Shown: piece by piece, positions 3,701-64,000 of the stretch
How the letters are laid out: each line of letters opens with the position of its first letter
How positions within the stretch are numbered: position 1 is the stretch's first letter
NCBI GenBank assembly: GCA_050084515.1
Contig: CM114271.1
Coordinates: 25,854,001 to 25,918,000, forward strand
Source: Blasia pusilla
Lineage: Eukaryota
Direction of reading: 5' to 3'
DNA length: 64,000 bases
Notes under the pieces: model-generated
Seen by the model: the letters and a program-made list of their open reading frames with translations, nothing else
Databases searched by the model: none
Told to the model about the DNA's origin: nothing
Position numbers and translations under genes: made by a program

Positions 3701-5007
3701 ATTTGTTGGATGCAAGGATCATCCGCATGTTTTCAATTCTCCAGTATATTACTGTATGTGCTACAAAATATACCATCCGGATGTGTTCAAACGTGTTAAT
3801 CTTTAGTTATAGTTCTTTGATGGTTGAAAAACTTATGGAACTCTCCCAAGTGTTTCAAATAAAGTTCGGATTAAAATTATATTTTGATATTGTCTCTTCT
3901 AGTTGCTTGTTGCTAACTGTTAAAATAAAATCTTGTTGCTAACTGTCAAAATAAAATCAATGTAGATGATTACGTGAATCAAAACTATGTGTAGATCGAA
4001 TTACTCAAACATTGTAAGTTCCCAAGCATCTCTCCGTTTAGAGATGTTCCATATATATCTTGTATAATGAGAAATTTATGATTGGGGGAATATATGAAAA
4101 TTAAAAGTGTATGACCTATTTGTCATACAAAAGGGATTGTTATGTTTGCCTCGAGGCCGAGGCGGCCTCCGAACCCCCCTCCCCGCATGCATGACCTATT
4201 TGTCGAATAGGTCATGCAAAAGGGATTGTTTCACGCATCGGGAGCCTAGCAACCCACTAATTCATATAATAGAGATGGAAGGTAATTGGAATTTTCATAA
4301 GAGAAAAGGTTAATATACATGGAAGAAGAAGATTATGGGAGTAGTGATTTTGAAATGAAGACACTGGAAAGATCACATAATGTGCGATGTGTGGTAGGGT
4401 TTAGGGTAGGGTGGGGGGTTGCAATCAGGTTGAGTAACCAAGCGTTTAGGGTTACATCATCGTGCATTGTATGGTCCTAGCTAGAGTAGTGTATTGAAGA
4501 GTTTAAGGTAGGGTCCGAGGAGTTTTTTACGAGAGGGGGTGAATTTTTGGCAGTAGGTTGAATAAATCGGTAATTAAAATTTTTAACCGGTTTCAAAAGG
4601 TAATATTTGAAACTCCGGGAAATTTCTGGGTTTTTAAAGTGTTCAAAAATTTTCCGAAATTTTATTTTTCTCCGCAGTTCATTTATGATATCCGGTTCAA
4701 TTGATATCCGGTATTTGAAAAACTAACCGGAAAATTTTTTCCACGTATCTTTTGGACTTAAGCCTCTTTTCATTTCTTCTCCACTTCTAGAGTCTTGGAC
4801 CTCAATTTTATTGCAAACATTCACTTCAAAGTTCACACTTTCTTTTAGTGCATCATCCTTGACAGGAATTGAACCTGGCTAGGCCTCCCACCAGCTGGGA
4901 GCCAAGGATTTTACCCCTCTATAATACATTGAAGCTTTTTAGTAAAAGCTTCAATGTTTTAGAAAAGGGACCCCCTTATCCCTACCACTAAGCTTTTCCC
5001 CCTCATC

Positions 5008-7263: not shown

Positions 7264-7929
7264 GTAGAGGCTCAGAGAGTGTAGAACAGAGAGTGTAGAA
7301 CTATGAGGTAGATACTAAAATATGGTGTAAAGGACCTACTATAAACATGTCACTTAGTAGGTGCTAAAGAAACAAAGGAGCTCAAGAAAATGCGGATCTA
7401 AAAGGTACTTAAACCCCAAGACTCCGCAAAAGATACTATGAGCCAATGCAATGTGTTATCATACACACATGATTCCCTAAGGTCCCTAATCGCGGCTCGG
7501 ATTCATGTACATTCAGTGAAGTCCCTTCTTCTCACTCAGCCTGTCAAAGCCAGCTGAGTGAGAAGAAGGGAATCGAGCAGAGTGTTCAGAAAGGAGATTG
7601 GCATGAGAGGTGCGGACCACTGTCGGCACTGCTGAGGCCATGAGCTGATCTCCGCCCTCGCCGAAGACACCCACACACAGACACAGCAAACAAGCAAACG
7701 AAACTACTCGACTCGAATGTGGTGGAGTACCAGCAGTGAAGGAGGTTGCGCTCACGGACACCCCACTGCTACGACTTTACTGACACCTACCGACTCAGTC
7801 TAAACAAGAGATGCTGCAGCGGCTGCCTGCAGAAGGTGCAGCGAGAGGGGAGTGGAAACAAAACGAAACTCTCGTCGAGAAGCCCTCTCTACAAGAAGCG
7901 CAGGCCGTAACTCAGAAACTTACGCCCAT

Positions 7930-8900
7930 AGCTGCACACCTGAACACACAATCGGACGGAGTGCGCACAGGATGGGATGGGATGGGAAGGCAATTGAAAG
8001 CAGCGCAGAAGGCGGAGCGCAGAATTAAACCTCGCCGAGCTAGCCAGCTAGCCGAGACGACTGCTCGAGAGAACCTGAAGAGAAGAGAGCCCAGTGAAAG
8101 GTAAACTACACGACGAAGCAAAATCCTGAGCTGCACACTTGAACACACAATCGGACGGAGTGCGCACAGGATGGGATGGGATGGGAAGGAAATTGCGAAA
8201 GCAGCGCAGAAGGCGGAGCGGAGATTTAAACCTCGAGAGAACCTGAAGAGAAGAGAGCGAGCGCTCTCTCTCTCTCGCTCGCTCGCTTCTTGTTCCCGCA
8301 ACTGCCCCGCGCTTAAGCAGCCCGACTTTCAAGTTTCAACTTAACTGCCGATCAAACACCTAGCTCGCAGCCTCGCACCGAACCCAATGAAGAGAACCTG
8401 AAGAGAAGAGAGTGAGCGCTCTCTCTCTCTCTCTCGCTCGCTTCTTGTTCCCGCAGCTGCCCCGCACCGAACCCAATCAAGTCTGCAACCGAAAGCGCGA
8501 AGCAGAAACCAGAAAGTGCGAAGCAGCAACCAGAAAGCGCGAAGCCTAGCTCGCAGCCTCGCAGCCTCGCAGTGCTCGCACCGAAGTGACCGAACCCAAT
8601 CAAGTCTGCAACCAGAAAGCGCGAAGCAGAAACCAGAAGGTGCGAAGCAGCAACCAGAAAGCGCGAAGCCTAGCTCGCAGCCTCGCAGTGCTCGCACCGA
8701 AGTGACCGAACCCAATCAAGTCTGCAACCAGAAAGCGCGAAGCAGCAACCAGAAAGCGCGAAGCCTAGCTCGCAGTCTCGCAGTGCTTGCACCGAAGTGA
8801 CCGAACCCAATCAAGTCTGCAACCACAAAGCGCGAAGCAAAAACCACAAAGCGCGAAGCAGCGACCAGAAAGCAGCAACCAGAAAGCGCGAAGCCTAGCT
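7930..8900. repeat. Nested tandem repeat array in the hAT 5' region (~200-bp duplication, then ~100-120-bp units built from ~20-bp AACCAGAAAGCGCGAAGCAG subunits)
   Basis: GCTGCACAC..GAACACACAATCGGACGGAGTGCGCACAGGATGGGATGG at ~7931 and ~8130; GAACCCAATCAAGTCTGCAACC at ~8469, 8592, 8708 and 8803. Confidence 0.9.
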
Positions 8901-19900: not shown

Positions 19901-20256
19901 GCGTATCTGCCGTTGTCATCTGACGATGCGGGGGAGCGGATTCAGCGCGGCTGAGGACGACAGGACGGTGAAGGAGAAATAATTTCCCTTCTTCTTTCCG
20001 TCCTCTCTTCATGGGTCATTGTTGAGTCTGCATTCGGCTTTTTTGTAGGTGTAGGTGCACAGCGTGAGGAGGAGGAGGAGGAGGAGGAGGCGGAGAGAGA
20101 GAGAGAGGAATCGGATTTCGACTGCAGACTGGTGCGGAAGTCTGTCTGCTCTCTGAGTGATTGATGAGCGCTGCCGCGGAGATGGTGCGCGAGAGCGGAG
20201 GGGAAGAGTAGTCGACATGGCGGGCTAGAGACGCGGAAATCAGAGGTCGTACAAGT

Positions 20257-23200
20257 ATGGGGAGCTACCATGGTGCGAAGGCGGTGCTACTGGTGGTCAC
20301 GATTTACGGTCTGTCTACGATATGCTGCGTGAGAGGGGCGGATTTTGTGTCTCCGGAAGTGCAGGTGCTACTGTCGATCAAAGAGAGCCTGGTAGACCCG
20401 TCTCGCGTTCTCGCAAGCTGGGACGCAGCTGATAGCATGCCTTGCAATTGGACCGGGGTGCTGTGCAGAGGCCAAAATCGACCTGTGGTTTTTTCTCTCA
20501 TTTTGAAGCACAGTAATCTGTCCGGAACGATTTCTCCTCGCATCGGCGAGCTCACGTACTTGGAAACTCTGCACCTGGGAGGGAACTTCTTGAGAGGGGA
20601 AATTCCTTCGGAGATCGGCAGGCTTTCTGCTCTGACGCTACTGGATTTGGGAAGGAATTTTCTCAGCGGAAGTATTCCTGCGACTATAGGGAATGTCAGC
20701 AGTCTACAGGATGCCAACTTTGAGGAGAACTATCTGACGGGTGCACTTCCCCCGGACATTGGCAACCTCACCAGTTGCAGGTACTTCAGCGTGAGACAGA
20801 CCAAGATCGGGGGCCTCATTCCTTCGGGTTTGAGAGTCATAGAGGAGCTGAACCTGCAGGACACGAAGATCACCGGGCCCATTCCGGGTGATTTTTTCAA
20901 ACAAAACCAGGTGAAGTATCTGTATCTTAACAACCTTCAGTTCTCCGGATCCATGGCATCCGAATTCGGTCAACTTCCGAAGCTTGAAGGACTGTACATG
21001 AGAAACACCGGTCTCTTGGGGGCCATTCCTGCGAACTGGACGAATACCTGGAGTCTCATGTACCTTGATCTGTCGGGCAACAGGCTGAATGGGCAAATTC
21101 CCGAGAGTCTCGGGCGCCTTTCCAACCTCAAAATGCTGGAGCTCTCTCGAAATTCTCTCTCGGGATCTCTTCCCCAAGAGCTGGGGAAATTCTGCCAACT
21201 CGAAGAGCTCGATCTGTCCTTCAATCAACTCAGCGGTCCGGTTCCAGACGGTCTGTGCGCAGGCGGGACGTTGAAGACGTTGAATCTAGCGGACAACGGG
21301 ATTGAGGGGAGTTTGCCTCCCATTCTTGCGAATTGCAGCACCCTGGTCGACGTGAACCTCGGATACAATGCGTTCTCGGGAACCGTATCGTGGGCTCTTG
21401 GTTCCGGAGAAAGCCTGTTGTCCCTGAGGGTTGGTCACAACCTTCTCAACGGAAGCATTCCACCTGAATTCGGCATGTTGAGAAATCTGACTATGCTGGA
21501 CCTTTCTCACAATAACTTCTCGGGTTCCATACCTCCTGAGATCCAAGGTCTTGTCGGTCTACAGATGCTCAACCTGTCCTCCAACCAATTTTCAGGGTCG
21601 TTGCCTCCCAACCTCAGCGAATGCAAGGCTTTGGACACGCTGCTTCTGCAAAGAAATGGTTTCACCGGAGAAATTCCAGTCGCAAGTCTCAGCAGTTTGC
21701 CTCTTCTCGCGGAGCTGAATTTAGCTGGGAATCGCTTGGAAGGGGGTGTGGCGGAAGGGTTGGGAAATCTCTCTCTACTGTCGAGAGCCCTGAACCTCAG
21801 TAGCAACTCGCTGAACGGTAGCATTCCATCCGACCTCGGGAAGCTTGAGATGTTGGAGTCACTAGACCTTTCTTTCAACGAATTTTCGGGTGAAATTCCT
21901 GTGGCGCTCCAAGACCTGCACAAGCTGCAATCTCTCGACCTCTCTTACAATCAACTCACTGGAAACATACCTCCATCCATCCTAACACTGGATCATCTCA
22001 AGACCTTGAACCTCTCCTACAATCGTCTTACCGGCGTTGTACCAGTCGTGACCGTGGCAAGTGGGCATCCGCCATGGCCGGCGGATTCTTTTCTCGGCAA
22101 TGTGGACCTCTGTGTGACCAACTGCTCGCAGGCCTCATCGTCGCCTGCTGATTCCAAGCCCGACGACGACGGTTTGAGCAGCGGTGCTCTGGCTGGAATT
22201 GTCGTGGGAGCCTTGGGAGCCCTGGGGTTCTTACTTTTGGCGACGATAACACTTTGCTTCACCAGAAAGGACTCCAGTGTGATTCCGGTCCAGAAACAAC
22301 GATTCTTGCTTCCAGAGATTTATAAGGGATTAACTTACAACGAAATCATGGCAGCGACGGACAATCTGAGCGACAAAAATCGGATTGGTAGGGGAGGATA
22401 CGGGACTGTCTACAAAGGAACGTTTGCCAACGACACGGTTTGCGCCGTGAAGCAAATTGTTATGGCAGCAGAATCGTCCAGAGCTAGCTTTCAAACTCAT
22501 CTGATGGATGTCGAGATCGCGGGACAGACGGATCACAAAAACATTGTGAAGCTCATGGGCTTCTGCCACAGGGGAGACGAGACGCTAATCGTATACGAGT
22601 TCATGCCAAACGGAAGCTTAGGGGATGCTCTGCATAAGCGAGGTGAGTTCCCAAGAGATCCATCTATCTGCGATGGTGTCACTCGCTGTCGACGAAATCG
22701 CTCGGGAAAGAGTAGAACCTTACGGGTCGATTGTCGACGAACTTCGTTTGTCTTGATGGGATATACTGCGCCGTAGCAATCATCAGAAGCAGTGTTGTGA
22801 GCTCACCAGAAGCTCAATCAATCTGAGGAAACCGTTCTCTAGCTGTTGTAGTAGGCGGTAGAATTCAGAACGTTAGACAGAGGAATGCCTTCCACTGGAA
22901 ACGCAATCCTGCTTGCCGTTCAGTCGATGGGGAACTCAATGTTCGTACATCACAAGTAGACCGCTTTCTAAGTTTCGTGCTTTGCTGTGCTAGATTTCTA
23001 GCCCACATGGGGCCTTCCAACTCTCGCCGCTCCTTCAGCATCCCGTCCACATTTCCTCCCATTCCCCTCTCAACAACACCCCCCCCAAGGCAATGCTTCT
23101 ACAAAAGCACCGGAGAACTCGGGGAACAGGCTTCTTGACTTGCTTCTACAATGTGACTGTAGAACAGCAAGACTGCTTGAAAATAATCAGCTCCTCTCTT

Positions 23201-25219
23201 ATCTTCATGCTTTCTACATTACACCGATTGTTTATTATTCATGACTGTGGCGAGGATCTAGTAGAAACGTTGGACCTGATTTGGCTGTCGTCTCGCACCG
23301 TCCGTCTCCCTTAACTCATTACTGCAGCATTGATTTCAACCTGATTTCCCTTACCTCATTACTGCAGCACACACCCTGTGAGGTGATGGGACCAAGCGAA
23401 AATGTATCTGACGTGTGACCTTGACATCAGTGTCTCAAGCAGAAGACGGCGAGAAACTGAGCTGGGAAACGCGTTTCAAGATTTTATGCGGTGCTGCTGC
23501 CGGAATAGAGTCTGTGCACAATCACTGCAAACCACAGGTTATCCATCGTGATTTGAAGAGCAACAACATTCTACTGGATGGCGACATGGAGCCTTGCATC
23601 ACCGACTTTGGCATGACGAAAATGGTGGAGAATGCAGGAGGCTTTGCGCCCAACATGGCCGTAGTGGCAGGCTCTGGAGGATACCTTGCTCCTGGTATGA
23701 TCTCTTTCCTACTTTCTCCTCCGTAGGTGGTTTACATCTATGTGACTATGTCCACTCCAATGCAGTGCGATCACGAAGATCGTGGAGGACATAATCAATC
23801 CCCTCTTCTTGTGAAAGAATGCCTACCCTCAAATTGAGGTGGTCGGTTGCTGCACTGGGCAGCTATGTCTTCATCCGTCATTTCCCAGCTCGTGATAGTT
23901 TCGCCACTGTCGTACTGAGAAGAAGAGCAACTTTACCTCTGTGGGTTTTAGGCCGAAGAACTATCGACACCGACTTCTTTCGTCCCCTAGCACGAAGAGA
24001 CACAATGGAGAAAATGCCATGGATTCTCACCCTCTTTAAGACATCGAAGCTCTTTTCTCAATATGTAAGAGAAGCTAATCGAGACAAATCAGGGAACTTT
24101 CCACAACATTGTCGTAGTAGACGCTTGTGCTTTAGCTCCCTTTCCTCGAGTACTATTCTACTCCAAAAACTCTACATTTGTCTCCCCCAGCCCAGCAAAA
24201 TGTGGCCACTGTTGTCGACGATGCCTCACAGAGAAGTACATTTGCATCCGATCCAGAGAAGCTGCATCAAATCCTCGAGAACGGGGAGCAGTGGAGCTCG
24301 CAGAGCAGCCCATCGGCACATAACGGTCGAATGATATGGGGCAGTAGATTTCACAGAAACCCATTCGCATGTGATGCAGAGACCATGGTGAGACCAGATG
24401 ACGGTGGACAGTAAATTTCACAGAGAAACCCATGCGCATCCAAACAGGAAAAGCAGGAGAAAATTGATGGAGGCCATCAGATCTCAAAGAGTAGTGCATT
24501 CGCATCTAACCAAGAGGAGCACGATTGAATGATGGGAGATGGTAGGCTTCACAGAGGATTCCATCTGCTTATAATCAGGAGAGGTGATTCTTGCCGACTG
24601 GGGTACTAGAGAGATGAAAAGCATACATAGGATCCCCCACAAAAGGAAGCTGTAGGCTACATTCCTAAGCGAATTCGTCGGTTCTCATCCAGTCCCCTCC
24701 TCTGATTCCGACTCAAAGCTTTTGCTTTCAGTACTTCGCATCCCCCAACTAAAGATTGCCACGAACATAACGACATTGCCTTTGTTGCTCGCTTGTGTTC
24801 TATCTGCAGAGTACTGTCTCAAAATGAAAATGACCGACAAAAGCGATGTCTACAGCTTTGGAGTCATCATACTGGAAGTGCTGACTGGAACGTACCCCGA
24901 GATCACGGATGACTTCAGCTTGGTGGATTGGGTCATAGACACTCTGAGAAACGAGGGCGTTTTAGAATCGATCTTGGACACAGCTCTACGAGAGGAAGTC
25001 ATCGAGTCCCATCAGGCAGAGGAGCAGATGACTCTGGTCCTACAGATCGGGCTTCTCTGCACAGTCGAGGATCCCGAGCAGCGTCCCTCCATGCGAGAGG
25101 TGCAAGAGATGCTAGAATACTCCAAAGGCGAGCACGGAAAAATCCGAGTGCCTGACCTCAACGATCTGCTCCACGATTTGAGCGGATCTCCAGACGACGA
25201 GTACAATATGATGCAGTAG
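20257..25219 (+). CDS. Leucine-rich-repeat receptor-like Ser/Thr kinase (LRR-XI-like); exons ~20257-22642, ~23443-23694, 24810-25219
   Basis: Signal peptide, LRRNT (W..CNWTGV.C), ~20 plant LRRs, GN..LC cap, TM helix. Kinase motifs GRGGYG, AVK, HRDLKSNN, DFG, GYLAP|EY, SDVYSFG. GT-AG junctions keep the frame. Confidence 0.95.
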
Positions 25220-27861: not shown

Positions 27862-30829
27862 TCAACTCGCCTTCTTTCTTTTGCTCCTGTGCTTCAATTG
27901 CTGAAACTGATTATGTCCCTTGGCATCTGATGATTTCCTCTTCATGTCTTTGCGAGCTTTCACCTTATCTTCAAAACCACTATCCATCATCTTCATTGCA
28001 GCAACCCGCTTGGCCTTGTACACCTGCGACGTTAGATTCCAACTTCACTCAGACTCCCGATAATTATGAAGCAAAAATTTGTCACATCCCCGCATAACCT
28101 TCTGCTCACTGATGACTTCTGATGCCTTGGAGAGCAACAACAATGGTACCTGCTCTGAATGATGAGAGACAACAAAAATTGAGCAGAAAGTCACCTGAGT
28201 GATGCCCTTGAGAACCTCATCTTCATTGGTTTCATACTCCTCCAATTCTTTCCCAATCACTTTCTCGATCTCATGAACAAGCTCCACGTCATACTACAAG
28301 CAGTGAGAGTAGTTTTTAGACGTCATTTAAGAAGTTGAAAAGTACTTTCCCAACATCCAAGAAGACTAAAAGTTCAGCACAAAAATGAACAGAACTTCCT
28401 GAGACACTCTACTGACCTGTGTCACCAGACTAACTGCACAACCTCCTCTGCCAGCACGAGCTGTTCGCCCAACCCGATGAACATAATCCTGAGCAAGTCT
28501 GGTTTGATGAAGCACAAGTATTAGACATGACAGTTCCGTGAGCCTCTTTCAACTGTCTTAGAAGATCTGGTAAGCGATGACTTAAACCCAGATGAGGGAG
28601 TCGCTAAACTTGGTATATCCTACATGATGGCAAGATCAACAGACGGAACAGGATAACTAGCAGGTATGAGAATTCAGTGAAATTCCTTCAACCCCTGCCC
28701 TCGGGGCTCTGGCATGACTGAAACCCAGTTGAAAGGTGCTAACCTTGGAAGATCATAGTTGATGACAAGATCAACAGTTGGAATGTCAAGACCTCTGCTT
28801 GCCACGTCGGTGGCAATCAAAATAGGCACCTGTCCAGCCTTGAAACGGGCTAGAGAAGCCAGCCTCTGTTGTTGGGATTTCATAGAATGTAGCGCAGCCG
28901 TATCCACGTCCAGCTGCTCCATGATAAGACTCAACAAGTGGCAAGTCCTACACACCATGCGAAAGATCAGCTCCCGTTAAACAGGCCAAACCCTCAGAGG
29001 AAAATTTGAGTTGAATTATGAATCACATATGATCTTCTAGGCTTCTCCTCAGTTCACACAGAAGAATTAAGATTTTCCAGTGTGAACTGAAGATAAGCCT
29101 AGGAGTTTGCCTGGGCCTTTCAAACCTTTTCCTACAGACTCAAAGCTGGTCACAAAGTACACATACTCGATGCCTACCCAGCTGCAAAAAGTGACACGAA
29201 CCAATTGATCAATGGATGAAGAAGCTATGGCACCTGCAACTAGCAGCGAAGATCATGACAGAGCGTATAGACTGGTCTTCGAGAGAAGCCAAGAGGTGCA
29301 TGAGGTACACATCCTTGACATTCGCAGGTAGGAAGATGTATTGTTGCTTCAGGGTCTCCACGGTTTTAAAGCCATCTCCTTCATATGCTTGATAGTAAAA
29401 TGCCTTGTCAAGCGACAGCGCATGTAGGGCGTTCAAGTTTCCTGTCATCGTTGCAGAGAAGAGTAGAGTCTGTCGATTCGTTGGCAAGTTCTGCAACACA
29501 GCTCGCATCTCACTCTCGAATCCCACCTCCAGCAGACGATCTGCTTCGTCGAGAACGAGAAACTGCAGCACCAAAACCAAAAACACCAGTCCAATCTAAT
29601 TGATAGACGTTTATGGCACTGCGCTTCCATACGAAGTTCACTCCCTCACTCACTCACTGTTACAGCTCGCAATTCGAGGCACTGACCCCTTCCCATCTCA
29701 AGGATAGACAGGGATGACACAATCCATGCTCTCTTCAGATCGAAAACATCCTCTGGCGGTTCATAATTTTTCAAATGAGTTGCTTAGATAGCCATGTAGG
29801 CTCGATTTGTACTTCCGTGTATTTTCCAGAGAGCGAGCTTCGGTTAGAATCTACTTCATAAATTCTGGGCATTCCGCTTCCATGCGAAACTCACTCGCTA
29901 GCCTCAATCTACACTGCGACTCGCAGCGCTGCAGCTCCTAACTCGAAGCACTGACCCCTTCCCATCTAAAGGATGACAAAGGATCACGCACAATCCATGC
30001 ACTCTTGAGCTGGAAGACCTACCATGGTGACTCAGAATTTCATCAAATGAGTAGCTTGGGAACCATACAGGCTCGAATTCGTACTTCCCTGGTCTTTTCC
30101 AGATGGTGACCTTCGGTTAGAACTCACATAGACCCTTCCAGACATGGAAATGTTCAAGGTTTGGCGATGAGGACGAGAAATGAGACCATCTGAAGTGCGG
30201 GTAGGCTTGGAGAGCGCGAGTACCTTTGCGTTGGAGAAGTAGCTAGCCATCTCTCCATCGCTGATGAAGTGGTCTTTCATGCGGCCAGGAGTAGCAATCA
30301 CCACGTGGGGCCTGTTCATTAAAGCCTGTGCTTGAGAGGTCATATCCATGCCTCCCACCACAACAGCACAGCGCAAATTCATCGAGGATCCCAGAGCTTT
30401 GAATTGATCGGCGATCTGAAATGCTAGCTCCCTTGTAGGAGTCATGACGAGCGCATATATACCGTAAGGATTCTCTGCCAGTTTCTGCAAAATCGGGAGT
30501 GCGAAAGCGGCCGTTTTCCCACTTCCAGTCTGAGCCATACCCAGCACGTCCTTTCCCTCCAGAATTCGAGGAATGCATCCCAGCTGAACGGGCGTAGGAC
30601 GCACCATTCCGAGCTCCCGGCAAGTGCTCTGCAGCCATGGCGGCAATCCCAAGCTCTCGAATGTCCTCACATCCTCAACGTCCACTCCTGCAGCAGCATC
30701 ACCAGATTTCACTCGCTTCTGCCGAGGCCGAGACGAAGAAGAGACAGCAGATTTCCTCCCTTTCGAGAAGATCTCCGGAGCTCCATCCTCCTCCTCCTCC
30801 TCCGCCTCCACCATCACCCCCACCTTCAT
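27862..30829 (-). CDS. RH36: DEAD-box RNA helicase 36 (DDX49/Dbp8 orthologue), multi-exon
   Basis: Q motif [51 protein letters not shown]. The C-terminal [22 protein letters not shown] is characteristic of the RH36/DDX49 family. Stop at 27862-27864. Confidence 0.92.
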
Positions 30830-31230
30830 TACAAGTAACCAGCCAACGATTCCCACTCCCTCAAATCGAGTGCTTGCCTTTCAAAGCCACAAGCCACCCA
30901 CCTGCTGTACAATTCGCATCCTGAGGACCCATAGCGCCATAGCCACGACTCCAATCAGTAGCCCTTCAGCTGAGCCCTGGGAAAGACGAATAGGGTTAGG
31001 GCTGAAGCCTCTCTCCTTCACATGTACAGAGAGACCTAAGTGCATACTGAAGGGTTTTACTCTCGTGGGTGTGTGGAATTGGGAGGAATGTTAGGGTTTG
31101 CATTGGAGAAACAGCTCTGGAGTCTGGAGTGTAGTGGGGTTTAGAGGAATTTAGGAGCTCGTGAGGGTTTAGGTGCATTAGTCCAAACCCACAGTCCAGA
31201 TTACTCGGCTGCCAGAGTGCAGCGAGCGCC
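30830..31230. promoter_or_regulatory. Short bidirectional promoter between RH36 and NOC3 with telo-box motifs
   Basis: Divergent ATGs are ~400 bp apart. Perfect TAGGGTTT (telo box, reverse complement AAACCCTA) at 31092-31099, with variants near 30991 and 31163. Confidence 0.65.
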
Positions 31231-40790: not shown

Positions 40791-43700
40791 ATCATTATTG
40801 GAGAGTTTCTTCTTGATTGCAAATACCTCTCTCCTTAACATGTGGCAACCGGGTAACAATAAAATATATTTTAGTCTACTGCAACAAGAAATGTGTGCAC
40901 CACCATTAATCCCTACATTGCATCAAAGTATCAATTAGACTCTATTTAAAACTAAAAAGAAAATTATTATTTACGGCCTCTACAAGTAGGGCTTAAATGA
41001 AATGCGTCCTAGGGATACCGCCACGTCCTCCTTGCAAGCACTCCATGCAGACAAACTTTATACGTGTCGGGCATGGTTACGCCCATGGTAGTAGGTTTGT
41101 TGTGGAGGATCTTCTTTTTGTTCGTGTGTGTTTGAGCCTATTTGTGTGCGTTCGAGCTCCTCCGTGAGCTTGGCTCGTGCGGGCGTCCATCTTCGTGTGA
41201 GTTTTGTGCCTCATCCAAGAGAATGTTGTAACCCTATACACATCTTAGACATATCCATCGTCCCATGGGAACTACATCAAGAGGGGGGGTCATACATGAC
41301 ATATGCCACCCTCGAGAACAACCATCACATACCAACATGGTGGGTGCACCCCTCGCAGATCCACACAACATACACCTCAAGCCTAGAGGTACCACTGTCA
41401 AGCTCAGATCCACTATTCCGTCCACGTTCGGAAGATGACATGGCGCACAATTGCGCACATGATCCTTCCAAACCATACCATCCCGTCCCTCCAACATGAG
41501 GACTCTGATCCGTAATACCTCGAGCACACATAGGATCGTTCGCCTTGCATTGACATCTAGCGTCGTGGGCGCCTGCTGTAAATACACGTAATCTCCATGA
41601 TGAAATCTCCTAATCCCTGGACGATAACTTCCTCCAAGAATGGTCGCGTACCTCAATATATCTCTATGCTGAGCGATAGCTAAGTTCTCAAAGGCCATAG
41701 GCATAACTCTACAAAAAATCTCCGCCCTCTGAGAACACGCTTATACCCACACATCTGGATCATCAAGATCTAACACCTCCGCCATATCACGTTGAATAGC
41801 TGTAGGTAAATGTGGCTCTCTCCCAAAGAGCAAAAAGTACGGTGAAAAGACGCCAAGGATTCCTGGCGACTAAAGCAATAAGCCATAGCCAACCATGGCA
41901 AATGTAGGTCCCACTCCCTCAATTGTCCCTGCTGCAAGCCATACTTGCGCAATCCTCTCTTCACGGTTTGTACTACTCTCTCCGCCAACCCATCCGCCTC
42001 AGGATGATCTCTAGATGTGGTACGGTGATCTATCAGCGCTTGATCACACAAGGCTTGAAACTCTCCCCTGAACTCAGTATCCTAGTCAGTCAACACCTCC
42101 CCTGGTGCATCAAAGTGACTAAGCACACGATCTAGAAACGGATAAGCTATTCCCTTGCTCGCCTTGTCCGGTAGTGCCACCAACTCTATCCACTTGGAGA
42201 AATGCTCCACCATGACCAACACGTACCTGTGATGACGCCCTGTCAATGCCAAAGGTCCCGCGAAGTCTAAAATCCACCAATAACTTAAACCCATAATCGG
42301 CAAAGGATGTAACTGCGGAGTGGGAGCTCGCACTCTGTCACATACCATACATCTGGCCACAAATTGTTGTATCTAAGTATGCATGGCGCGCCACCAATAG
42401 TGAACCTGGAGTAAGCTGTAAGTAGGCTTTACTCCAAAATGCCCCAACTCCTCATGGGCATGTCACACTACATGTGCTCGTTGGAAAGGATGAGGTACCA
42501 CTCGTATCCTACCATCTTCCCATACGTGCAAAATATGAGTCTCCTCCCACCTAAACCTCTTGGCTCTCTATAGGATCCGATCCCGCTTCCTAGCACTCAC
42601 TATGCTTGCTATGACGCTAGTGCAAGAAAGAACCTCCACGTCGTCATGGATATCACGATCACTTATCGCCTCCTCATTGACCTCCGGATCCAAAGACACA
42701 TCATCTAACCCCACCATTGGAGTCATCACCTGCAGTTGACCTAACATAGTCAACCAACAAAGATAGGCAGATGCATGCCAATCGGGCACCATCTTCTCAT
42801 CACTCTCTCCGTGCCATCGAGCTCTTGTGTCGTCTCTCTGACTCGGACATGGGTTACGACTCAACCCATCCGCATCCTTGTTCAGCCAACCCGGCCTTCG
42901 AACTACCTCAAAATCATACTCCTGTAGTAATAGAGCCTACCTGGCAAGCTTTCCCGTAAGCTTGTCGGACTCCATGAACCACCTCAACGGCTGATGATTA
43001 GTGATAAGTGTGAAAGGGTTGTCGAATAAATAACACCTTAAGTGTGCCATGGCCCACATTGTCGCCAAGCACTCTCCCTTGTAGGAGCTATACTTTGCCT
43101 CTGCAATGTTTGATTGGCTCGCGTAAGCCACAACGAACTTCCTCTTCTCGCCATCCCTCTAAGTAAGCATTACTCCTAGACCCAACATGCTCCATTCCGT
43201 ATGTAATTGGAATGGGCGATCCCTAACCGGTCTCTGAAAAATGGGTGAGGAGGTCAACCTGTCCTTAAGCTCTTGGAATGATCGCTCCTGATCATCTCCC
43301 CACAACCAAACCTGATCAAGTGTCATCAACAAGGTCAAAGACTTCGCGATTGCACTAAGACCCTTAGCATACCGTCCATAGAAGTTTGCCAGTCCAAGAA
43401 ATTCTCGGACTCGACTCACATCTGTAGGGCGTGGAATCTGCGCAATAGCCTCCATCTTTATCTGCTGAATACCTAACCCACTCGGGTATATGGTGTGTCC
43501 CAAGTACTCAATCTGCTCCTGAAAGAATCTGCACTTGCTTGGATGTAACTTCAGTCCATGTAACTGCAATCACCGAAACACCTCCTCCAGGTGTTGCTCA
43601 TGCTCCTCAACCGTGGAACTGAAGATAAGAATATCATCTATGTAACATCGTTCAAAATCCAAGCCAGCCAGAATCCTATCGATCACTCTCTGAAACTCCG

Positions 43701-44499
43701 CAGGCGCGTTCTTCAACCCATATGGTAAGAACCGCCACTGATACAAGCAATCCCTCCCGAATCGATCTATCCCCCTGAATGTTGTCTTCTCCCTGTCCTC
43801 CAACCTGATAGGAAGCTGATGATAGCTAGCACGGAGATCTAAAGTACGAACGATCTTTGCATGCCCTACCGCATCAAATATCTCCTCAGGAGTAGGCATG
43901 GTATACCAATCTAACCTCGTTTGTCGGTTGATAGGACGGTAATCTCCACACATCCGCCCTTCCGTCCAATTGCCATACATATCCTTCTTCGCCGGCATGA
44001 TTATGGCAGATGCATACTCCCCATGTGATAACTCCACAAGTCTTTGCCTCCAACAAGTCCTGACTCCTGCTCTGAATCAAGGCTCGCTCCATATTAGAAT
44101 ACTTGTAGGGTCGACGAAAGATTGGTGTATCACTAGCTAACTCAATCCGTATCCCGGGACCCTTCAGCGTACCCAAGTCTCTCATAGTGAAGGCAAGACA
44201 ACTAACGTACCCTCTCAAAAACCTATGAACTCGTCGTCACTCTCCTCCTATCAACTTGAGACCTATCACTCGGAAAGAACGCAACCTCCGGCTTTGGTTG
44301 CTATGTAGCAACCCTAGCCACCTCTGAAACAACCACTCCACTCTGACATCCTACACCATGCTCCACATCCAAAAAAATGTGGTGCTCTAGCCGCCTTTGC
44401 ACTCTCGGCTCGAACGACGTCCCAGGAAGTCCATGGGTTCCTATCTCTCCTCATCTCGCCCCCAGCCAATGCCTCTACAGACCTAGTAGGCAGGCTAGG

Positions 44500-45241
44500 G
44501 CTCACCAACGTATGTAAGGTTACCCTCAACTCCCCCATCCTATTGGCCATCGCCAACGGTGATCTATCATCCCGTGTCATCACCTCGGATCGACGCCCTA
44601 AGCCCAAAATAGCATCCATTGTGAGATGTGATGCTCTCTGGACTCCATCGTATGCTCAACTCAGTACCTCTGATGGTATCAGTTTCGTCCATCATAGCTG
44701 TGGATGATGGGCTCGTGATCCAACTCTCGCTGCATCTAACAACACAACAGGTCCCAACCATGACCTCACCTAATGCACACTCGTCATCACACGTGCACAA
44801 GTGTCTCCCAAATAACGGCACGTTCTCCAAAATATACGCCGGAGAACATGTCTGACTTTCTTGCAAGTATCGTACTACTTGCAGCATCTCCCAAAACATC
44901 CTTGACCTCGGATCCTCCAATCCAAATCCTCGGCCAGTTGATGAATGACCCTAACATGGCCATCCTAGAATCACCAAATGAATGGTGCCAACTCTATCCA
45001 GATCCTACGCCCCCACCAAAGAGATGTTAGCGGGTAGTGTATGTTGATATCCCCCTATTGCAGATACCGGTAACAACTTAGGATACCTCTGGACCAATCT
45101 CGCCACCTGATGTATTGATACTTGCTTTGCGGTCTCATCTCTCTCCACATAAAGGTACAAATGCACCCGTATGCCTGCCTGCAATACCGCAGCCAATCCG
45201 GTGCTAATCCCTCTGAAGAGATCTAACACCCTAACACCCTC
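44500..45241 (-). pseudogene. DNMT3-like C5 cytosine DNA methyltransferase domain embedded in gypsy pol
   Basis: Motif I VLDLFRGISTG (45229 down), motif II YVERD, motif IV GWPC*G (44954-44965), motif VI YILENV (44819-44827), motif VIII-like LDAARVGSRAHHPQL*WT. Motifs IX-X not seen. Confidence 0.88.
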
Positions 45242-47151
45242 CTATGGACACTACCATACAACGAATGTGGTATCTAGTGGGATCAACATCTCCACTCCAA
45301 GAGCCTTATCGCCACCTAAAACTCTCGCTGCTCTGGGATAAAGGCATGACTCCATGCCTGCCTCACGAGGTTGTCGGCACTCCCCTGTAGCTTACGAGTC
45401 GTACCCCAAAATAGTGAAGAGGTCTCGCCAACATGGGAAGAGACACCCGCCATGGCCTGTCTCTCCGTGGGACTATCCGCTACTCGGACATTCTCCGCAT
45501 GTGCATTCCCCTCCAACAACTCTCCTGTCCAGCTAACACTACCTGTGAAAGCTGCCAACGTGGTCACATACTCGTCTCGTGCTCGACCACCTCATCCCGC
45601 GAACTGCACCAGTAACTTACTCATCCGCCTGTCACATGACCACCACCTTGGCCGATAAGCAACAGTTTCCTCCTAGAAGTCAAGGATGAATCCAAGGGGA
45701 TATAACACTATACTCCCCACCAACACATCGTATGACTCAGTTGGTGTTGTAATCGCATGTGTGCGCACCATACCACTATTCATCGCATGCTCTGGCTGGA
45801 CTCTGACAACTATCTCCTCTCAAGTCATATATTGCGTGGATGACACGCCCCCCAATTGAGGTCTATATCTGGAATGGAAAAGGCTCAATGTCGGCCTTCT
45901 GTAACCCCAAAGCTAAACAGGACGCCTTCCTAACATCAAGGGTTGTGCTCCCGAATCAAGTAGGATGCGTTGCAGGTGGTATACTATCCCCGTCGGACTA
46001 ACCAAGCAAAATACTACAGCTCGATTATCCAATAACACTACGCCATGTGTCACCACTACTCGCTCTATGGCCGGTCGAGCTGGCATATCTACCAACTTTG
46101 TCGCCGCCGCATACCATGACTCTGTGGGGGACGTCCTGAGCACCTGCTCCAAGGGCAAGTCCACCACCTCCTCAACTACCATTGAATAAGAGGCAGTCAC
46201 CTCTCCACGCTCATACAACGGGGTGGCCAACCAGAACACCTCAGCTGGTCCAACTCCCAACGTCGCAACGAAAATAGTGGAGTCTTGCTCACTCTGGTGG
46301 CCACCTCCAACACTATGGTTGACATTGACTCCACTCGAGCGGACATAGGAGTTGTCACTCCAACTCCTCATGACGTCGATGCACCTCCCTGACCTGTAGG
46401 CACCGCTGGTTGTCAAGATACCATCAATGGTATGTGTAGTGCCTCTGACAATGTGAATGATTGTGGAACCCTGGCTTGCTGCCCCTTAGTCCTCTCCGGT
46501 GGGTTAATCGCAACTCCACCTCTTGATGGCTCAGTGCCTCTTGCAGCACCCCGAGTTACCACTGAAGTCGCCTTAACCTGAGCTGCACTACACATAAACC
46601 CCGTACTAGCAAGATCCTCACTCATGTCAGGGTAGGAGGTAGGAGTTGAAGTCACACTAGCTGCTTGCGGCTTCGTGCCTTCCCTGAGCTGCATCATCAT
46701 CATGGCAGCAATCCTTTGCTCCAACTGATCGATGCGTGAGAGAAGTGTCGGCTGTGGTGCTCCTGCTCCATCTCCTCTGGCTGGTGGTGGTCTTCTACCA
46801 CCACGTCCAAGAACAACTCCCCGACCTCCTCCAGGACGACCGCCCCCAGACCCTCGGCCTACCTCTGGACGTACCTCTCTACGAAGGTCAAAACATCTAT
46901 CCCTAGTGTGACAATATCTGCGGCAATAGTCACACTGGTACCGTGGTGGGGCCATCCTCTGTGGCTCTTGAGCAATCGTAGACGCTTGTGGTCCTCTCCC
47001 TTGTTATGTGCAGTCTCTTTGCCTATGGGCCCCTCCACACGTCCAACAAGATAACATCGGTTCCTGTTGGGAAACATATGTAGGTACATGTCGTTGCCTC
47101 ATAGGCTCACGGTACCCGCTCTACTATCTGGGCACACTGGCCCGCTCCGGT

Positions 47152-48431: not shown

Positions 48432-51277
48432 CCGTGGTACTGGTGCTCGTTGTGACACCTGTGGGGTCACTATCGCTCGTGGACTTGCCGACTCTTGAGA
48501 AAATCCAGTGATCACTATCTACTCCTCAATCATGTTGAGCTTAATATGCTCACACAACTCGAAGATCACCTTCAATGTGGGCTTCGCTGTGTGCATCGGT
48601 ACCGTATCTCGGACTCTCCTCCGTAGTTCTTGGTCCAAAACCCCAAACCAAAACTAGACTGACTGCGCCTCAGTCACTCCATAAGTAGCAATGATCAGCC
48701 TCCTCATGCGTGTGAAGGCCTCTCTCAGACTCTCACCCGATCGTCGCTAAAAATCTTGTAGACTCTTTAGCTTGTCGGTGCATACGCCTTGGTAGCTCTT
48801 CCCCAACTGTCGGAAGAACTCCACTTTGGGACTGACGCTGGGTGGCCCTCTACCACCAGAGGTCTCTGTCACATCGCTTGTCTCACTGCCCTCCTCTCCA
48901 TCTAGTCTCGGGGCTGAAGGTGTTGGTCTCTCTCCTCTCACGATCCCATCATATTCCTCGCGACCACTAGTGGATACATACCCTGGAGCCCAATACATCC
49001 TCTAGGCATCGATCTCTACTGAATACAACAATCAGAACTCTTGTAGTCATCCATTGGAGGACCCTCCAAGTGTTGGAACAACCCTTTCCATGCCATGAAA
49101 GGGTTGAACCGTGTCGAGGTCCGTATCTCCTTGAATTCTCACCACATGTCGAACTCCTCGATGAAATCATCTAAGTCGATGGTGCCCACTGCATCCGAGA
49201 AACAAGGCATGCCCCAATGGCCCATGTCGTCCATCTCCTGCCAAGTGACACTGCCTCGTTTGCGATCTCGTCACCAGACCCTGTGTCTAGTGATGACGAT
49301 GTAGCCACGGATGGATGTCGAGGTAGCTCCTCACTCGTAACCCCTCGGTATCTCACTCCACTCCGTGTCACACCACTGCTACTGCTTGCACTACCCCGTT
49401 CTTCCAAACCCTGGAAGAACGCCGTGATAACAACCCTGTCTCACCCGCTCAAACACTCAGACTCACCAAGAGTCTCCCACACTCCTCAGTAGCTCACTGA
49501 CGCTAATGGTAATCCCGTGACGACACATCCGGCCTCACGCACACTCAACACTCAGGCTTACCATAAGCCTCCCAACTAACTCACCTAAACCACAGACACT
49601 CTTGGGTCATACACGTGACCTCTACTCGGCAACCACCGTATATCCACAGACATGCTACACATGCATGGAGACTATACTCGTCACCATCGCTATATCCATC
49701 TAGCCCCAGCAACTACCCGATACCCAACACTCTCAATCACATAAGATAAGTGCAGGAAAAGGGACTCAAATGGGTAACTTGATCATGCCCTCCAACCTAC
49801 GACCCATCAACACCCACTCCTCCATGTGATATGAAAACCTCCGTAAACGACACCCTCCTCAACCAACACGTCAAACCTCCCGTCAGCATTGGCATGTATG
49901 TCTCCATCAGAATCCTCGCCGAACTAATCCCCGGCCAAACTCTCAACCATGTCAGCCCATTTATCATGTCATCCGCGCCTCTACCACGTCGCCCTACGAC
50001 ATCCATCCTAGCCCCTACTACATCCGCTTCTACTAAGTATGCTTTGTACTACATCCAACTGTCGACTACGTATCTTGTCTACCACGTTGCTTGGGCCTCC
50101 AACCACGTCACCCGCACCTCCAACCACGTTGATCATGTCGACCACATTCGTCCCTCCCAACCACGTCTTCTGACCAACCACATCTGGAAGGCACCGACCA
50201 CGGTGCTCTAAACCACGCAAGTGCGTTTACTATGTATGGGAAAGAAAAAAGGACCTAGCCCTTGGCCCACGTGCCTATGGGCCTTATGGCCCCTTTGGGG
50301 GGGGGGGCCTAAATGCGTGGCCCTATGAGGCCGCCCTAAATGCGCGAGGGGGAGGGGGCACGCCCCTCCCCCTACGCCGGGGAAGGGGTCCGCACCCCTA
50401 TGACAACATAAATGATGGGAAGGGGGGGAGTCGCGCCCTAACCCTAGACTTGACCTAGCCACCCTCACAAAAGCTATGGAGACTTGCTCAAAAAAAATGC
50501 TTCTCTTCCTCTCTCCGGACACTTGCCACTGCTCACTTGCGACCGTCATTGTCCCTCATCATGCGACACACGAGCGTTTTACTCTACTGCTGCCTCAAGT
50601 CAGTTTGCACTAGCAAAATTTGAGAAAAATGGACAACACTTCCGCCCACAGTCTTTCAAACATGCGTCTCTAGGGACTCTCGACCAAGGCAACTCGCTTG
50701 CCCTGCGTTGGGGTAGACGGTCTGGTAAGTCTAGGGAAACGAATACTAACGATGCGCCCTCCGTACCTACAAATAACGAATTTCCACCAACCCCTTGACA
50801 TCTTTCTCATGTGAAAATAAAGAGTAGTAAAAATGACACACCAGGCCTAAAACTCCACTCCTCAATCTACATCGGCATATCGAGCCTCATCCACCCTAAG
50901 CTATCAAGGAATCCAGGCGCTAGCACCTTAGTCCTATCTCACACACGAACAAGAGAGGTGCTCCAATGGCCCAACACGAGAAAGATGGCTTTGGAAAGCC
51001 ATCTTCCTCCCTCGTATAGGGCTGGGAAGAGCCAAAAGGCTCTTCCCCTAAAAATAGCTATCCTCATGGTAACGTGCGCTCACAGGTTACCATGGGCGGG
51101 TGAGTTGCTCAACAAGTCACCCGCCTGTGAAAGACCCCAACAAGAACGTTGTTAGAAATGACGTTCCTGACACAACAGCCCTATCCTCAACCTCATCCGA
51201 CATCACGGGACAAAGTTACACTCAAGACATACCATTGGCTCCTATGCCCTATCCACGATACATCTCGACCTATCGGT

Positions 51278-51475
<198 letters not shown>

Positions 51476-60702: not shown

Positions 60703-61388
60703 TGGTTTGGTTGCAATCAAACCATTCTGGTGGATTTCTGTACGTCAGAATTATCTGATGACAGTCAGAATTATAATAAAGAGTTTGATTTTGAAATTCA
60801 GAAGCAGTCTACTATTATGTATTGAGATTAACTGAAGTAAAGGGTTTGATTTTGAAATTCAGCTCACAAATATCCTCCTAGCTTCTTACAATCACAAACG
60901 ACTTGATACACCAAAGAGGATTTTGCTGCCTTTCCAAGTTGGTGTATCAAGTTTATTCACTTAACACTCACTAAACTTTGAACACAATTGGACAGTCACT
61001 GTTGATAGAAAATGTACGGTTGACAATTGTTTTGGACTCAGTATGATTGGGTGCAATCACCGTGCTTGAGTGCAACTTGCTTTCCCTGATATTGCCTTAC
61101 CTGCTACTTACTCGAACACTAGGAAAATTCGAGGCTAAATAAATTCTTGTCAATCTTGTTTGTACCATACTTTGTCATGCCTTGTACATTCCATGATGGG
61201 CTATTTTCACCTTTCATACTCATTGCTGCACAGCCCATTCTCTGTAGTTTTTCTAATTACATGCAGGAATCTGGCTTAGACACTAATTGGCAAGACATGG
61301 TTAATTGCCTTGGAGGCAACGTGTTTCAGCACTTGCAGGAATCCCTTACATAGATTCATCTCCCACATTCTGGTAAATGCATAGAGTG

Positions 61389-64000
61389 CTATGTCAGTGA
61401 CCAACTTCCCTTCCTGTCACCAAGCATTTTAAGCAGCTTAGAATGATAGCGACGAAGTCTGTTTCGATGAGCCACAGTGATTATAGTCTTTCCCATGTTC
61501 ACCAATCGGTTGTAAATGTCATCCTGCAAGACAAATGTCCAGTTATAAGTGAAGCTTTCCACTTCACAATGCCAAGAAAGGAACCTTTACTTCAATACAA
61601 GTTGAGGGTGAGACAGTTGAGGATCATATGGTTAACGCAGCTAGGAACACACCTCTGCATCCTCGCTGAGAGCACTTGTTGCCTCATCAAGTATGACTAG
61701 CTGAGGTTGATGATAGAACAATCTAGCTAGTGAAAGTAATTGTTGCTCTCCAGGAGATAATGAGGTGGTCCAATCGATCTCCACCTTCAAGTTGTCACAC
61801 ACACAACAAGTAGGCATTAAAATTCTGTGTTCCTGGAAACCTTATCGTGCTCCCACATGAGATAACCTTCCCAGCTTAATGGGTGTCACTGTCCACAGCA
61901 ACCTTTCTTCTTGACCAGCACAGCTTTGTGCAAAACTACCAATAAAAATAATAATAAAATTAAACCCTTCAACTATCTTCCTTACCTCCCAGTCGTTGCC
62001 AACTTCCTCGAGTATATGTAACAGTCCTACAGCCTCCAAAATCCTTCTGAGGTGGAAACTGTTCTGGGATGATGATGCATCAATAATTGGGGGAGGATCA
62101 GGGTAAGAAATTTGGCCAGCTAAGCCTGTGTTTGCCATTAGGGGTCGTTGAGGCAACATAAGCAAACCTTTCCCACCCAACCTTGGGGGGATCCTTATAT
62201 TGCCTGCATATAAGACCAAACAAGCACTTCCATGATGCTAAATTGGTGATAAAACAAATGAGAGCATCCAGGTTGGAAGACGATATTTCAGGACAGTTCA
62301 AAATTGCTATGAAAAAAGAGCAGTCTCCAACGCACAAAAGCCACTGCACAGTTGAGACCAGAAACTACGAAGAGTTTAGCCAAAAAACACACTTAACATC
62401 CTCGAATCAAGTATTAGAAACAGACAACTGGGCATGTTGATCAAAGTAGAACACCCCACACAAAAAGCAAACAACAGAGATCGAGGCAACTCAGTTGATA
62501 TGAAAAATATAATGCTTATAAGCAGGTAACTCAAATCACCTTACCTGAATGCAGTGGCCACAGGTTACACAATACTTTCAGGAAACTGGTTTTTCCACAG
62601 CCTGTTGGCCCCATAATGAGTAGTGAATCGCCCCATCGCAGCTCCATGGTCAACTCCCGAACAACCACAATTTTAGATCCCGGGATGAAGCAGGTCACGT
62701 GGTCGACAACCAGGGCAGGTAGCAATTTACAGAGGTTCAAGCCCTCTAACTCTCGGGTTCCTTTCTGTGAAGTTTGGTTCTGTGTCTCTTCGCCAAACTC
62801 AACTTCAATGTGACAGTTCGTAACCAACTCTTGAGTGGATGCATTGAGGACATGTTGAAGGACTTTCACAGGAGCTGTAGTAAAAAGTGATCCAAAGAGA
62901 GGGTCATTTCCAACCCTGGGATGATGCACCAAAGAGGCTGACCCTACTTTTGTAATGTTGTGACCCAAAACCAATGTCACAGCATTATCTTCGTCATTTA
63001 GGATCTTCTTCCCAAGCCTCTGTAAAGGATCCTCCAGCATAAAGCTGGCCTCCACATCGTATTCACTGCTGGAGTCGTGTCTGTTGCTCTTAAAATCGTC
63101 CATACAAGACAGAACTCCTCTGATGCCTGGGTCCAATGTATCTGCCCAGTGACCAGCACTTCTTAGCCTCTTGATCACGCATACTCCAAGTTCAAGAAGG
63201 ATTTCTTGGCAGCTCTTCCCTTCATCTATAAATGCACTACTTGCGTTGTAACTCTTGGCCAGCATATGGGAGGACCGGACAGTTCCAATCCGACTCATGT
63301 GCAGTACACTTTCATTTATCTTGCTACGTTGAACGAATGGAGAATGACACTGGAAACAAACAATGAGTAGAGAACTTGGAGAAACCTCAGGAAAAGCTGT
63401 ACCCAGCACCTTGTGAACTGATGGTGGGGCAAAGCGGATTGAAAACTCTATCCTTTCACCTCCACCAAAGTTTAAGCAAGTAGTGCTACAAATCAAATAC
63501 TCTGCACGGTTTATCTGTAAATCACTTCCGGAAGGGACTGAAGTACAATCTGCTCCTGATTCACTTCCTGAAGGCTGAGGTGTGTTGAGTCTAACACTTG
63601 CAGGATGCAGATCAGCTTGTTTTGGCTTCAGACCACCTGGGTCCTCTCGTGGAACCAATTTACTTTCAGGCAAGAGCTGGAGAACCTCAAAAAGCTCACT
63701 CACCCTTGCAGTATATCCAGCGACATCAGACACCAATTTGGCGGTATCCATCACTTGAGAAAAACTGCACACAAAATTCCAGCTCAAATTATATGTTAGT
63801 ATAGAAAAGGTGTCTCTCTAACATTGAACCGAGAAAGAGCCCGGGTAATCTAGCCTTCTAGATCATTTTCCCCTGCAACCAACTAACCCATACATTTTGG
63901 AGCTGTCTTGACATCTTCCATCACAAGGTCTGAACTTTTGGTGGCTCTGGGAATTGAAAGCGCAATGGTGCATACCCGTATATAAGTTGAAGAACAGCAA
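61389..64000 (-). CDS. ABCD4: ABC transporter subfamily D, ABCD4/CblJ-like, with an inserted MMADHC/CblD-like domain (5' part outside the window); exons >64000-63976, 63764-62545, 62203-61986, ~61784-61653, ~61523-61389
   Basis: [20 protein letters not shown] (ABCD4: SDVAGYTHRI), Walker [14 protein letters not shown], signature [22 protein letters not shown]-loop VAHR, stop at 61389-61391. Splice phases are consistent. Confidence 0.88.

Follow-up and report, generated by a model that had tools for sequence, protein, structure and literature searches.

A CblD-like domain between the membrane and ATPase domains of an ABCD half-transporter gene of Blasia pusilla

Structure and transcription of the fusion gene

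The window, as the whole stretch of DNA analysed here is called, comprises 64,000 nucleotides of Blasia pusilla contig CM114271.1 (positions 25,854,001 to 25,918,000 of assembly GCA_050084515.1). The gene under study lies at the right-hand end of the window, on the minus strand, and encodes part of an ABCD-type half-transporter in which a domain resembling MMADHC/CblD is fused in frame between the transmembrane domain (TMD) and the nucleotide-binding ATPase domain (NBD). The same arrangement was found in proteins of Chara braunii, Spirogloea muscicola and Closterium.

The stop-to-stop open reading frame (ORF) that carries the fusion spans 62531..63817 (-) and holds 428 codons. Within it lies the fusion exon of 1220 nt at 62545..63764 (-), whose limits were set by RNA junctions and the GT..AG ends that these imply, and which encodes the TMD end, a linker, the CblD-like domain, a second linker and the start of the NBD. 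Upstream, the final 25 nt of the preceding exon (63976..64000, -) encode late TMD sequence. They are joined to the fusion exon by an RNA junction at 63764/63976 seen in the RNA sequencing (RNA-seq) runs X2, X9 and X10, which together with its splice ends defines a 211-nt GT..AG intron at 63765..63975 (-), and their translation extends the alignment of the ABCD TMD end with the Chara, Spirogloea and Closterium proteins. This upstream exon runs out at 64000, and the remainder of the TMD lies past the window end. Downstream, a 341-nt GT..AG intron (62204..62544, -) is followed by an NBD exon with the Q-loop (61986..62203, -), a 201-nt GT..AG intron (61785..61985, -), an NBD exon with the LSPGEQQ signature and Walker B (61653..61784, -), a 129-nt GT..AG intron (61524..61652, -), and the last coding exon (61389..61523, -), which contains the H-loop and ends in a stop codon at 61391..61389, with the 3' untranslated region beyond.

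The fusion exon opens with the end of the ABCD membrane domain at 63677..63764 (-), recognized by identity to the fusion relatives and marked by a GYTARV..ELFE motif. Linker 1 (63503..63676, -) is rich in Pro, Ser and Gly, cannot be aligned, and varies in length among the relatives. The MMADHC/CblD-like domain occupies 62837..63499 (-), about 220 residues, and corresponds to the C-terminal nitroreductase-like module only. Its conserved block 1 (IEFSI..CFQ, 63350..63451, -) was delimited by HMMER alignment to CblD chains and by alignment of the inserts, and block 2 (..GHWAD..DP, 63128..63169, -) by HMMER alignment to CblD chains; block 3 (62870..62968, -), the beta-hairpin region, is the sole block scored by Pfam. 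Within block 3, Ser and Ala codons at 62936..62941 (-) stand at the positions of human Cys-261 and Cys-262 in a gap-free HMMER alignment to 6x8z and 5cuz. Linker 2 (62717..62836, -) leads to the start of the NBD at 62545..62716 (-), which was matched by Pfam ABC_tran at 25.2 bits and contains Walker A (GPTGCGKTS) at 62585..62611. In this way about 320 extra residues stand in frame, in one exon, between the TMD end and Walker A.

Across the window the spliced C-terminal reading comprises 575 codons with no stop or frameshift, and all ATPase motifs are present in it: Walker A, Q-loop, LSPGEQQ, Walker B and H-loop. An earlier note, made from the letters of this DNA, had described a fusion exon of about 1.2 kb running in frame from the TMD end through some 320 residues to Walker A, had placed the three blocks, with block 2 at 63128..63169, and had called the ATPase intact. 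The exon limits, block coordinates and NBD motifs given here bear out each of these claims.

Transcription was assessed over 61350..64000 in four RNA-seq runs, with stranded raw reads for X9 and X10 and contigs of the older runs X1 and X2, under a 95% likeness filter. Four junctions were recovered flanking and around the fusion exon, all of them GT..AG and on the minus strand, and no junction was found inside 62545..63764 in any of the four runs. The X9 depth over the insert was 5-19x, similar to the flanking exons, and 0-1x over the introns. X1 contigs tile 62544..63820, and an X2 contig links the next exon to 546 nt of the fusion exon. These results agree with the earlier description of one uninterrupted exon, the insert being retained in the mRNA and covered continuously by X9. 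Coverage of 63308..63503 was uneven: X10 had zero depth at 63308..63485 and X2 had no contig at about 63399..63503, whereas X9 reached 13-19x and X1 spanned the stretch with one contig; this may reflect a strain-specific indel or divergence past the 95% filter, a divergent allele, a minor isoform or low depth. One X2 contig was joined in inverted order at 63155..63184 / 63239..63398.

Relationship of the insert to MMADHC/CblD and of the transporter to ABCD4

The only Pfam family matched by the 218-aa insert was MMADHC (PF10229), at 25.7 bits, which is under the 27-bit gathering cut-off; the 428-aa ORF scored 22.5 bits and a 246-aa insert 25.3 bits, and the gathering score was not reached. When the insert was compared by phmmer with all PDB chains, four distinct sequences were returned at E≤10, and all were MMADHC/CblD from human and mouse (E 0.0016-0.013). 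HMMER itself aligned blocks 1, 2 and 3, in order, to these chains. Profiles built from several inserts gave much lower E-values. For a five-insert profile, E-values ranged from 7.9e-14 to 1.9e-11 against the CblD structures 5a4r, 5cuz, 6x8z and 9mrs and rose to 0.11 at the following match, PF10229 was matched by five of five inserts (best E 9.2e-17), and the single match of a four-insert profile among 5.8 billion proteins was a nematode MMADHC at E 3.2e-7. In an atlas of language-model features, 23 of the 30 nearest clusters were MMADHC (PF10229), with a score of 0.93. Because the multi-insert profiles score strongly, though the window sequence alone is weak, the match to CblD goes beyond chance. 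An MMACHC-type identity was also considered and rejected, as no MMACHC chain was found at E≤10 in the PDB by single-sequence or profile search; an MMACHC cluster appeared among the atlas features at rank 23 (score 0.86).

Structural comparison was marginal for the window insert and clear for a relative. The AlphaFold2 model of the window insert (pLDDT 55), compared with 48,161 representative chains, placed CblD at ranks 1 and 2 with Z 7.7 and 7.4, close to an unrelated chain at 7.0. A better model was obtained for the Spirogloea insert (pLDDT 67.8), for which eight of the eight Foldseek matches at E≤0.001 were CblD (TM 0.67-0.75, E 2e-8 to 4e-7), followed by a match at E 0.18. Judged by sequence and profile, and by the predicted fold of the Spirogloea relative, the insert is homologous to the C-terminal module of MMADHC/CblD, and the collinearity of three blocks with that module, which the earlier note had proposed by comparison with the human protein, was recovered in the HMMER alignment and in the profile match at E 7.9e-14.

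The insert shares its three collinear blocks with MMADHC/CblD (PF10229; 5CUZ, 5CV0, 5A4R, 6X8Z, 9MRS), and the match covers the modified nitroreductase-like C-terminal module, approximately human residues 141-295 by structural alignment. MMADHC residues 154-296 are described as the part that interacts with MMACHC and as having a modified nitroreductase fold, and the N-terminal 115 residues as serving the mitochondrial route (PMC4705923). Those N-terminal 115 residues are absent from the window insert. Whereas MMADHC is a free protein, its counterpart in the window is an internal domain of a transporter, with extra loops and with Ser-Ala in place of Cys-261/Cys-262.

The window covers only the last ~35 residues of the TMD plus the NBD, and the identity of the transporter was assessed mainly in the full-length fusion relatives. 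The Spirogloea protein scored 282 bits in total against ABCD4, with totals of 176 for ABCD3 and 166 for ABCD1; domain by domain, its scores against ABCD4 were 156.5 bits (TMD) and 124.8 bits (NBD), and those against the four Arabidopsis CTS domains 84.3, 105.5, 79.2 and 85.2 bits. The Chara protein scored 269 bits against ABCD4, 155 against ABCD3 and 135 against ABCD1, and atlas ranks 1 and 2 for the Spirogloea protein were ABCD4 clusters. By these scores the transporter parts of the fusion relatives are closest to ABCD4, and not to ABCD1-3 or plant CTS. The TMD of the relatives is PF06472, and the TMD end in the window is 59-68% identical to theirs over 37 ungapped columns. Because the window gene shares the insertion point of the family, this degree of TMD-end identity and 38.5-45% NBD identity, it was tied to the ABCD4-type family.

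ABCD4/CblJ (6JBJ, 24VC-24VE) has the same half-transporter order, an ABC_membrane_2-type TMD followed by the NBD, but lacks the ~320 residues, including the CblD-like domain, that the window gene has between the two. The plant peroxisomal ABCD1/CTS/PXA1 transporters (9WFG and related) belong to the same ABCD superfamily and differ in being full-size, in having no CblD insert, and in their lower per-domain scores to the fusion family than those of ABCD4.

Occurrence of the fusion and state of its CblD-like domain

An exhaustive phmmer search of the insert against 1.84 billion representatives yielded six matches at E≤0.001; the query was a single sequence, so that the spread of the fusion among taxa has been sampled incompletely. 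Two of the six (P0005 and P0007) were dropped as low-complexity repeats, and the remaining four were two Chara braunii proteins, one Spirogloea muscicola protein and a 387-aa fragment (P0009), which starts and stops near the limits of the window exon. The Closterium fusion proteins, two in number (NIES-53 and NIES-68), were found by a separate ORF search. Word-based homologue searches were nearly blind to the family: the ORF query returned the two Closterium proteins and the profile query three proteins that were already known. In the libraries searched, no protein was more than 34% identical to the insert, so that the protein of the window itself is missing from them. Among metagenome contigs, 121 pattern matches led to one confirmed locus (L001), at 1476..4235 (+), where ABC_membrane_2 (166.9 bits), MMADHC (57.6 bits, which passes the cut-off) and ABC_tran (57.4 bits) follow one another in a complete, intron-free frame of 919 codons. 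Its neighbours on the metagenome contig are an HVA22/TB2-DP1 gene at 4240..4659 (-) and a raffinose-synthase-like gene at 7227..8498 (+).

The order TMD-CblD-NBD was thus present in Chara braunii (GBG69418.1, GBG88949.1), Spirogloea muscicola (SM000003S11100), Closterium NIES-53 and NIES-68, P0009 and L001, and the insert lies at the identical position in these seven other sequences. The algal ABCD-CblD fusions share the insertion point, the domain order and the conserved motifs of the window gene. In the gene model of Chara GBG88949.1 (P0006), Walker A is separated from the remaining NBD by reverse-transcriptase/retrotransposon sequence, and most of the TMD is missing; either this paralogue has been disrupted or the gene model is a merged one. 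Because the metagenomic locus carries the same three-domain frame, the fusion is an established gene family and not a peculiarity of the window. It is old, being common to Charophyceae, Zygnematophyceae and a metagenomic eukaryote.

The earlier note had known of no description of this architecture. A full-text literature search found no paper describing an ABCD4-MMADHC fusion, which upholds that statement in part; on the other side, the architecture is common to charophytes and visible in public data, where the Pfam families precomputed for the Chara protein are already given as PF10229, PF06472, PF00005. The records of the algal fusions name them only as hypothetical or ABC-domain proteins. 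In a published survey, METH, MTRR, CblC, CblD and CblJ are reported for hornworts, and CblB and CblJ for liverworts; the passages of it covered here mention no fusion (Dorrell et al. 2024, PMC11439496).

The CblD-like domain of the window differs from those of most of its relatives at the site expected to bind cobalamin. Human MMADHC binds cobalamin via Cys-261 on the beta-hairpin, beside the conserved Cys-262, and the complex of MMACHC with MMADHC is held together mainly by the Co-S bond (PMC12501144). Where human CblD has G-C-C-K, the gap-free HMMER alignment places G-S-A-S in the window. One hairpin cysteine is present in the Chara, Spirogloea and Closterium fusions at the 262 position and in L001 at about 259; P0009 has none. 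Over the CblD-like part, the other fusions are 41-58% identical among themselves, the Cys-bearing Chara, Spirogloea and Closterium forms included, and the Cys-free window sequence is 25.6-30.8% identical to them (26-31% for these three). The corresponding values for the NBD are 40.5-47% among the others and 38.5-45% for the window.

Branch lengths and conserved columns gave the same picture. With five sequences and the LG+G4 model, the window had a terminal branch of 1.63 in the tree of the CblD-like part versus 0.76 in that of the NBD, compared to 0.32-1.05 versus 0.44-1.31 for the others, so that relative to its own NBD the CblD-like domain of the window has evolved approximately 2-3x faster than that of the other fusions. 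The other five inserts agree fully at 27 columns, and the window matches them at 16 of these; when the other members were left out in turn, they kept from 16/16 to 16/21. Of the family-invariant NBD columns it keeps 39/43, like its relatives. These comparisons indicate that the divergence is domain-specific, with an eroded CblD-like part and a normally conserved NBD.

Eight fixed single-base differences, between 61416 and 63412, separate the window from the X9/X10 reads, and seven of these are non-synonymous and one synonymous. Three of the seven lie in the insert and four in the NBD, the latter mostly conservative (K/R, R/K, T/S, R/Q). The ratio of non-synonymous to synonymous polymorphism (pN/pS) was ~2.1. 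At omega 1, at least 7 non-synonymous changes among 8 have a probability of 0.41, and at omega 0.2 one of 0.008, though the number of sites is small. The changes are of mixed types and not editing-like. Because X1 carries only two of the eight differences, the RNA runs are taken to come from different strains or alleles.

Elsewhere in the window, a receptor kinase with LRRNT_2, many leucine-rich repeats (LRRs) and a split kinase domain (second part at 24656..25219) lies at 20212..25219 (+) and is streptophyte-typical; the LRRNT_2-LRR receptor kinase and the charophyte relatives of the fusion gene fit a streptophyte source. A DEAD-box RNA helicase exon was identified at 30032..30880 (-) (Pfam DEAD, 117 bits). 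Two adjoining long frames at 5008..7314 (-), with zf-C17orf113 and DUF4371, look transposase-derived (hAT-like), and retrotransposon remains occupy 41234..47003 (-), with a PHD finger at 41234..41740, reverse transcriptase at 43570..44076 and Gly/Arg-rich frames at 45913..47003. Across 42-52 kb of the window the GC skew is strongly negative, a long dinucleotide-type microsatellite at ~51200..51450 reads (SL)n in two frames, and Rfam gave no match within the 64 kb.

Interpretation and alternatives

In animals, ABCD4, which acts in lysosomal export, and MMADHC, which acts in cytosolic routing, are separate proteins, and the passage of cobalamin between them is partly understood. MMACHC associates with the ABCD4/LMBD1 complex. 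From these roles and this association we infer that the ancestral fusion coupled export to a chaperone. The CblD-type domain sits between the last membrane helix (TM6) and the ATPase domain, presumably on the cytosolic side. In the Cys-bearing algal forms this would place the module at the exit of a cobalamin exporter, where it would meet cobalamin as it is released, and the hairpin cysteine would take over the cobalamin, by itself or while bound to MMACHC, and pass it on towards methionine synthase. In the lineage of the window, the transporter core (TMD end and NBD motifs) is conserved as in its relatives, and the CblD-like module, having lost the hairpin cysteines and many otherwise invariant residues, most likely no longer ligates cobalt; it would persist in the cytosol as a linker or docking domain, either relaxed or put to another use. 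A thiolate-based hand-off by the window module is less likely. Overall, the explanation that we favour, and consider probable, is that the gene encodes an expressed ABCD4(CblJ)-type half-transporter with an old CblD fusion, in which the CblD module has eroded in the window and the transporter core has been kept.

Several observations weigh against this explanation. The model of the window insert is poor, and although its top seven Foldseek matches are all CblD, they lie at E 0.02-0.12; in the comparison of that model with representative chains, an unrelated chain reached Z 7.0, barely under the 7.7 of CblD. The earlier proposal of an MMADHC-like domain was upheld by the profiles and by the all-CblD phmmer matches, and not by the Pfam score (25.7 bits, below 27) or the Foldseek E-values of the window sequence taken alone. 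Similarly, its designation of the transporter as ABCD4-like holds for the full-length Spirogloea and Chara relatives, whereas the 72-aa NBD exon of the window itself gave 18.5 bits with ABCD1 and 17.5 bits with ABCD4 in the PDB, which does not discriminate between them. The algal cysteine aligns with Cys-262 (259 in L001) and not with Cys-261, and the hairpin chemistry of the family may already differ from that of the human protein. In the window, the HWAD, HP..G and TTAP motifs are kept in the insert, which indicates some remaining constraint, the frame of the insert is open for ~320 codons and transcribed at the exon level, and a cysteine elsewhere or a non-thiol binding mode might conceivably serve. 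Finally, the polymorphism pattern, with its few sites, is as compatible with decay of the entire gene as with decay of the insert only.

The strongest alternative holds that export and hand-off are fully working, with the fused CblD domain taking cobalamin at the mouth of an ABCD4-type exporter in an organism that uses B12. It would account for the maintenance of the fusion across distant streptophytes, the expression of the insert at the exon level, the intact ATPase motifs and the retention of core CblD motifs, and it finds support in the B12-related genes that PMC11439496 reports for hornworts and liverworts. Set against these are the lack of a hairpin cysteine in the window domain, the alteration of 11 of 27 otherwise invariant positions, the long branch in the CblD tree beside a normal NBD branch, and the non-synonymous nature of all three insert polymorphisms. 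Because the cysteines are lost, invariant positions are eroded and the domain evolves faster, a canonical hand-off is doubtful here, and we regard this alternative as unlikely, though the best placed of those considered. The retained or repurposed hand-off module pictured in the earlier note stood, accordingly, as far as the fusion and the ATPase are concerned, and as a retained module it was called into question by Ser-Ala at Cys-261/Cys-262, the 16 of 27 invariant positions kept and the fast branch.

A broader proposal, which is tentative and just short of the former in likelihood, treats the ABCD4-CblD fusion as the ancestral streptophyte wiring of export to chaperone, a natural Rosetta stone for physical contact between CblJ and CblD. 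Bryophyte lineages scored as having only CblJ may then hide a CblD domain below the detection threshold, and the Cys-free domain of the window would have taken on a new role, for example that of a gate or of a docking site for another corrinoid or tetrapyrrole partner, and would not simply be decaying. As a speculation, the state of the window would fit a lineage with CblJ and with no CblD detected, such as PMC11439496 reports for liverworts.

A rather improbable reading is that the gene in its entirety is a transcribed relic, turning into a pseudogene after loss of B12 metabolism, with neither part under selection. The seven non-synonymous changes among eight, four of them in the NBD, are compatible with the omega of 1 that such a relic would show, but the 575 codons free of stops and frameshifts, the correct splicing of four introns, the conservative NBD substitutions and the 39 of 43 invariant NBD positions, as many as in the relatives, speak against it. 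An artefact, with the insert a retained intron or other non-coding sequence that resembles CblD by chance, could draw on the sub-threshold Pfam scores of the window alone, the zero X10 depth at 63308..63485 and the X2 contig hole at ~63399..63503, but is very improbable given the profile match to CblD structures at E 7.9e-14, the same-site insert in seven other sequences, the X9 depth of 5-19x across the exon, the X1 tiling of 62544..63820 and the lack of an internal junction in any run.

A conserved natural fusion argues that ABCD4 and MMADHC work in direct contact, and it would offer a single polypeptide for structural study of cobalamin hand-off. Surveys of the presence and absence of B12 genes would have to be reread, as a CblD domain can hide within a protein scored as CblJ, under the Pfam threshold. 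The distinction between the Cys-bearing algal form and the Cys-free, fast-evolving form of the window may furthermore serve as a marker for when a plant lineage dropped or changed its B12 hand-off.

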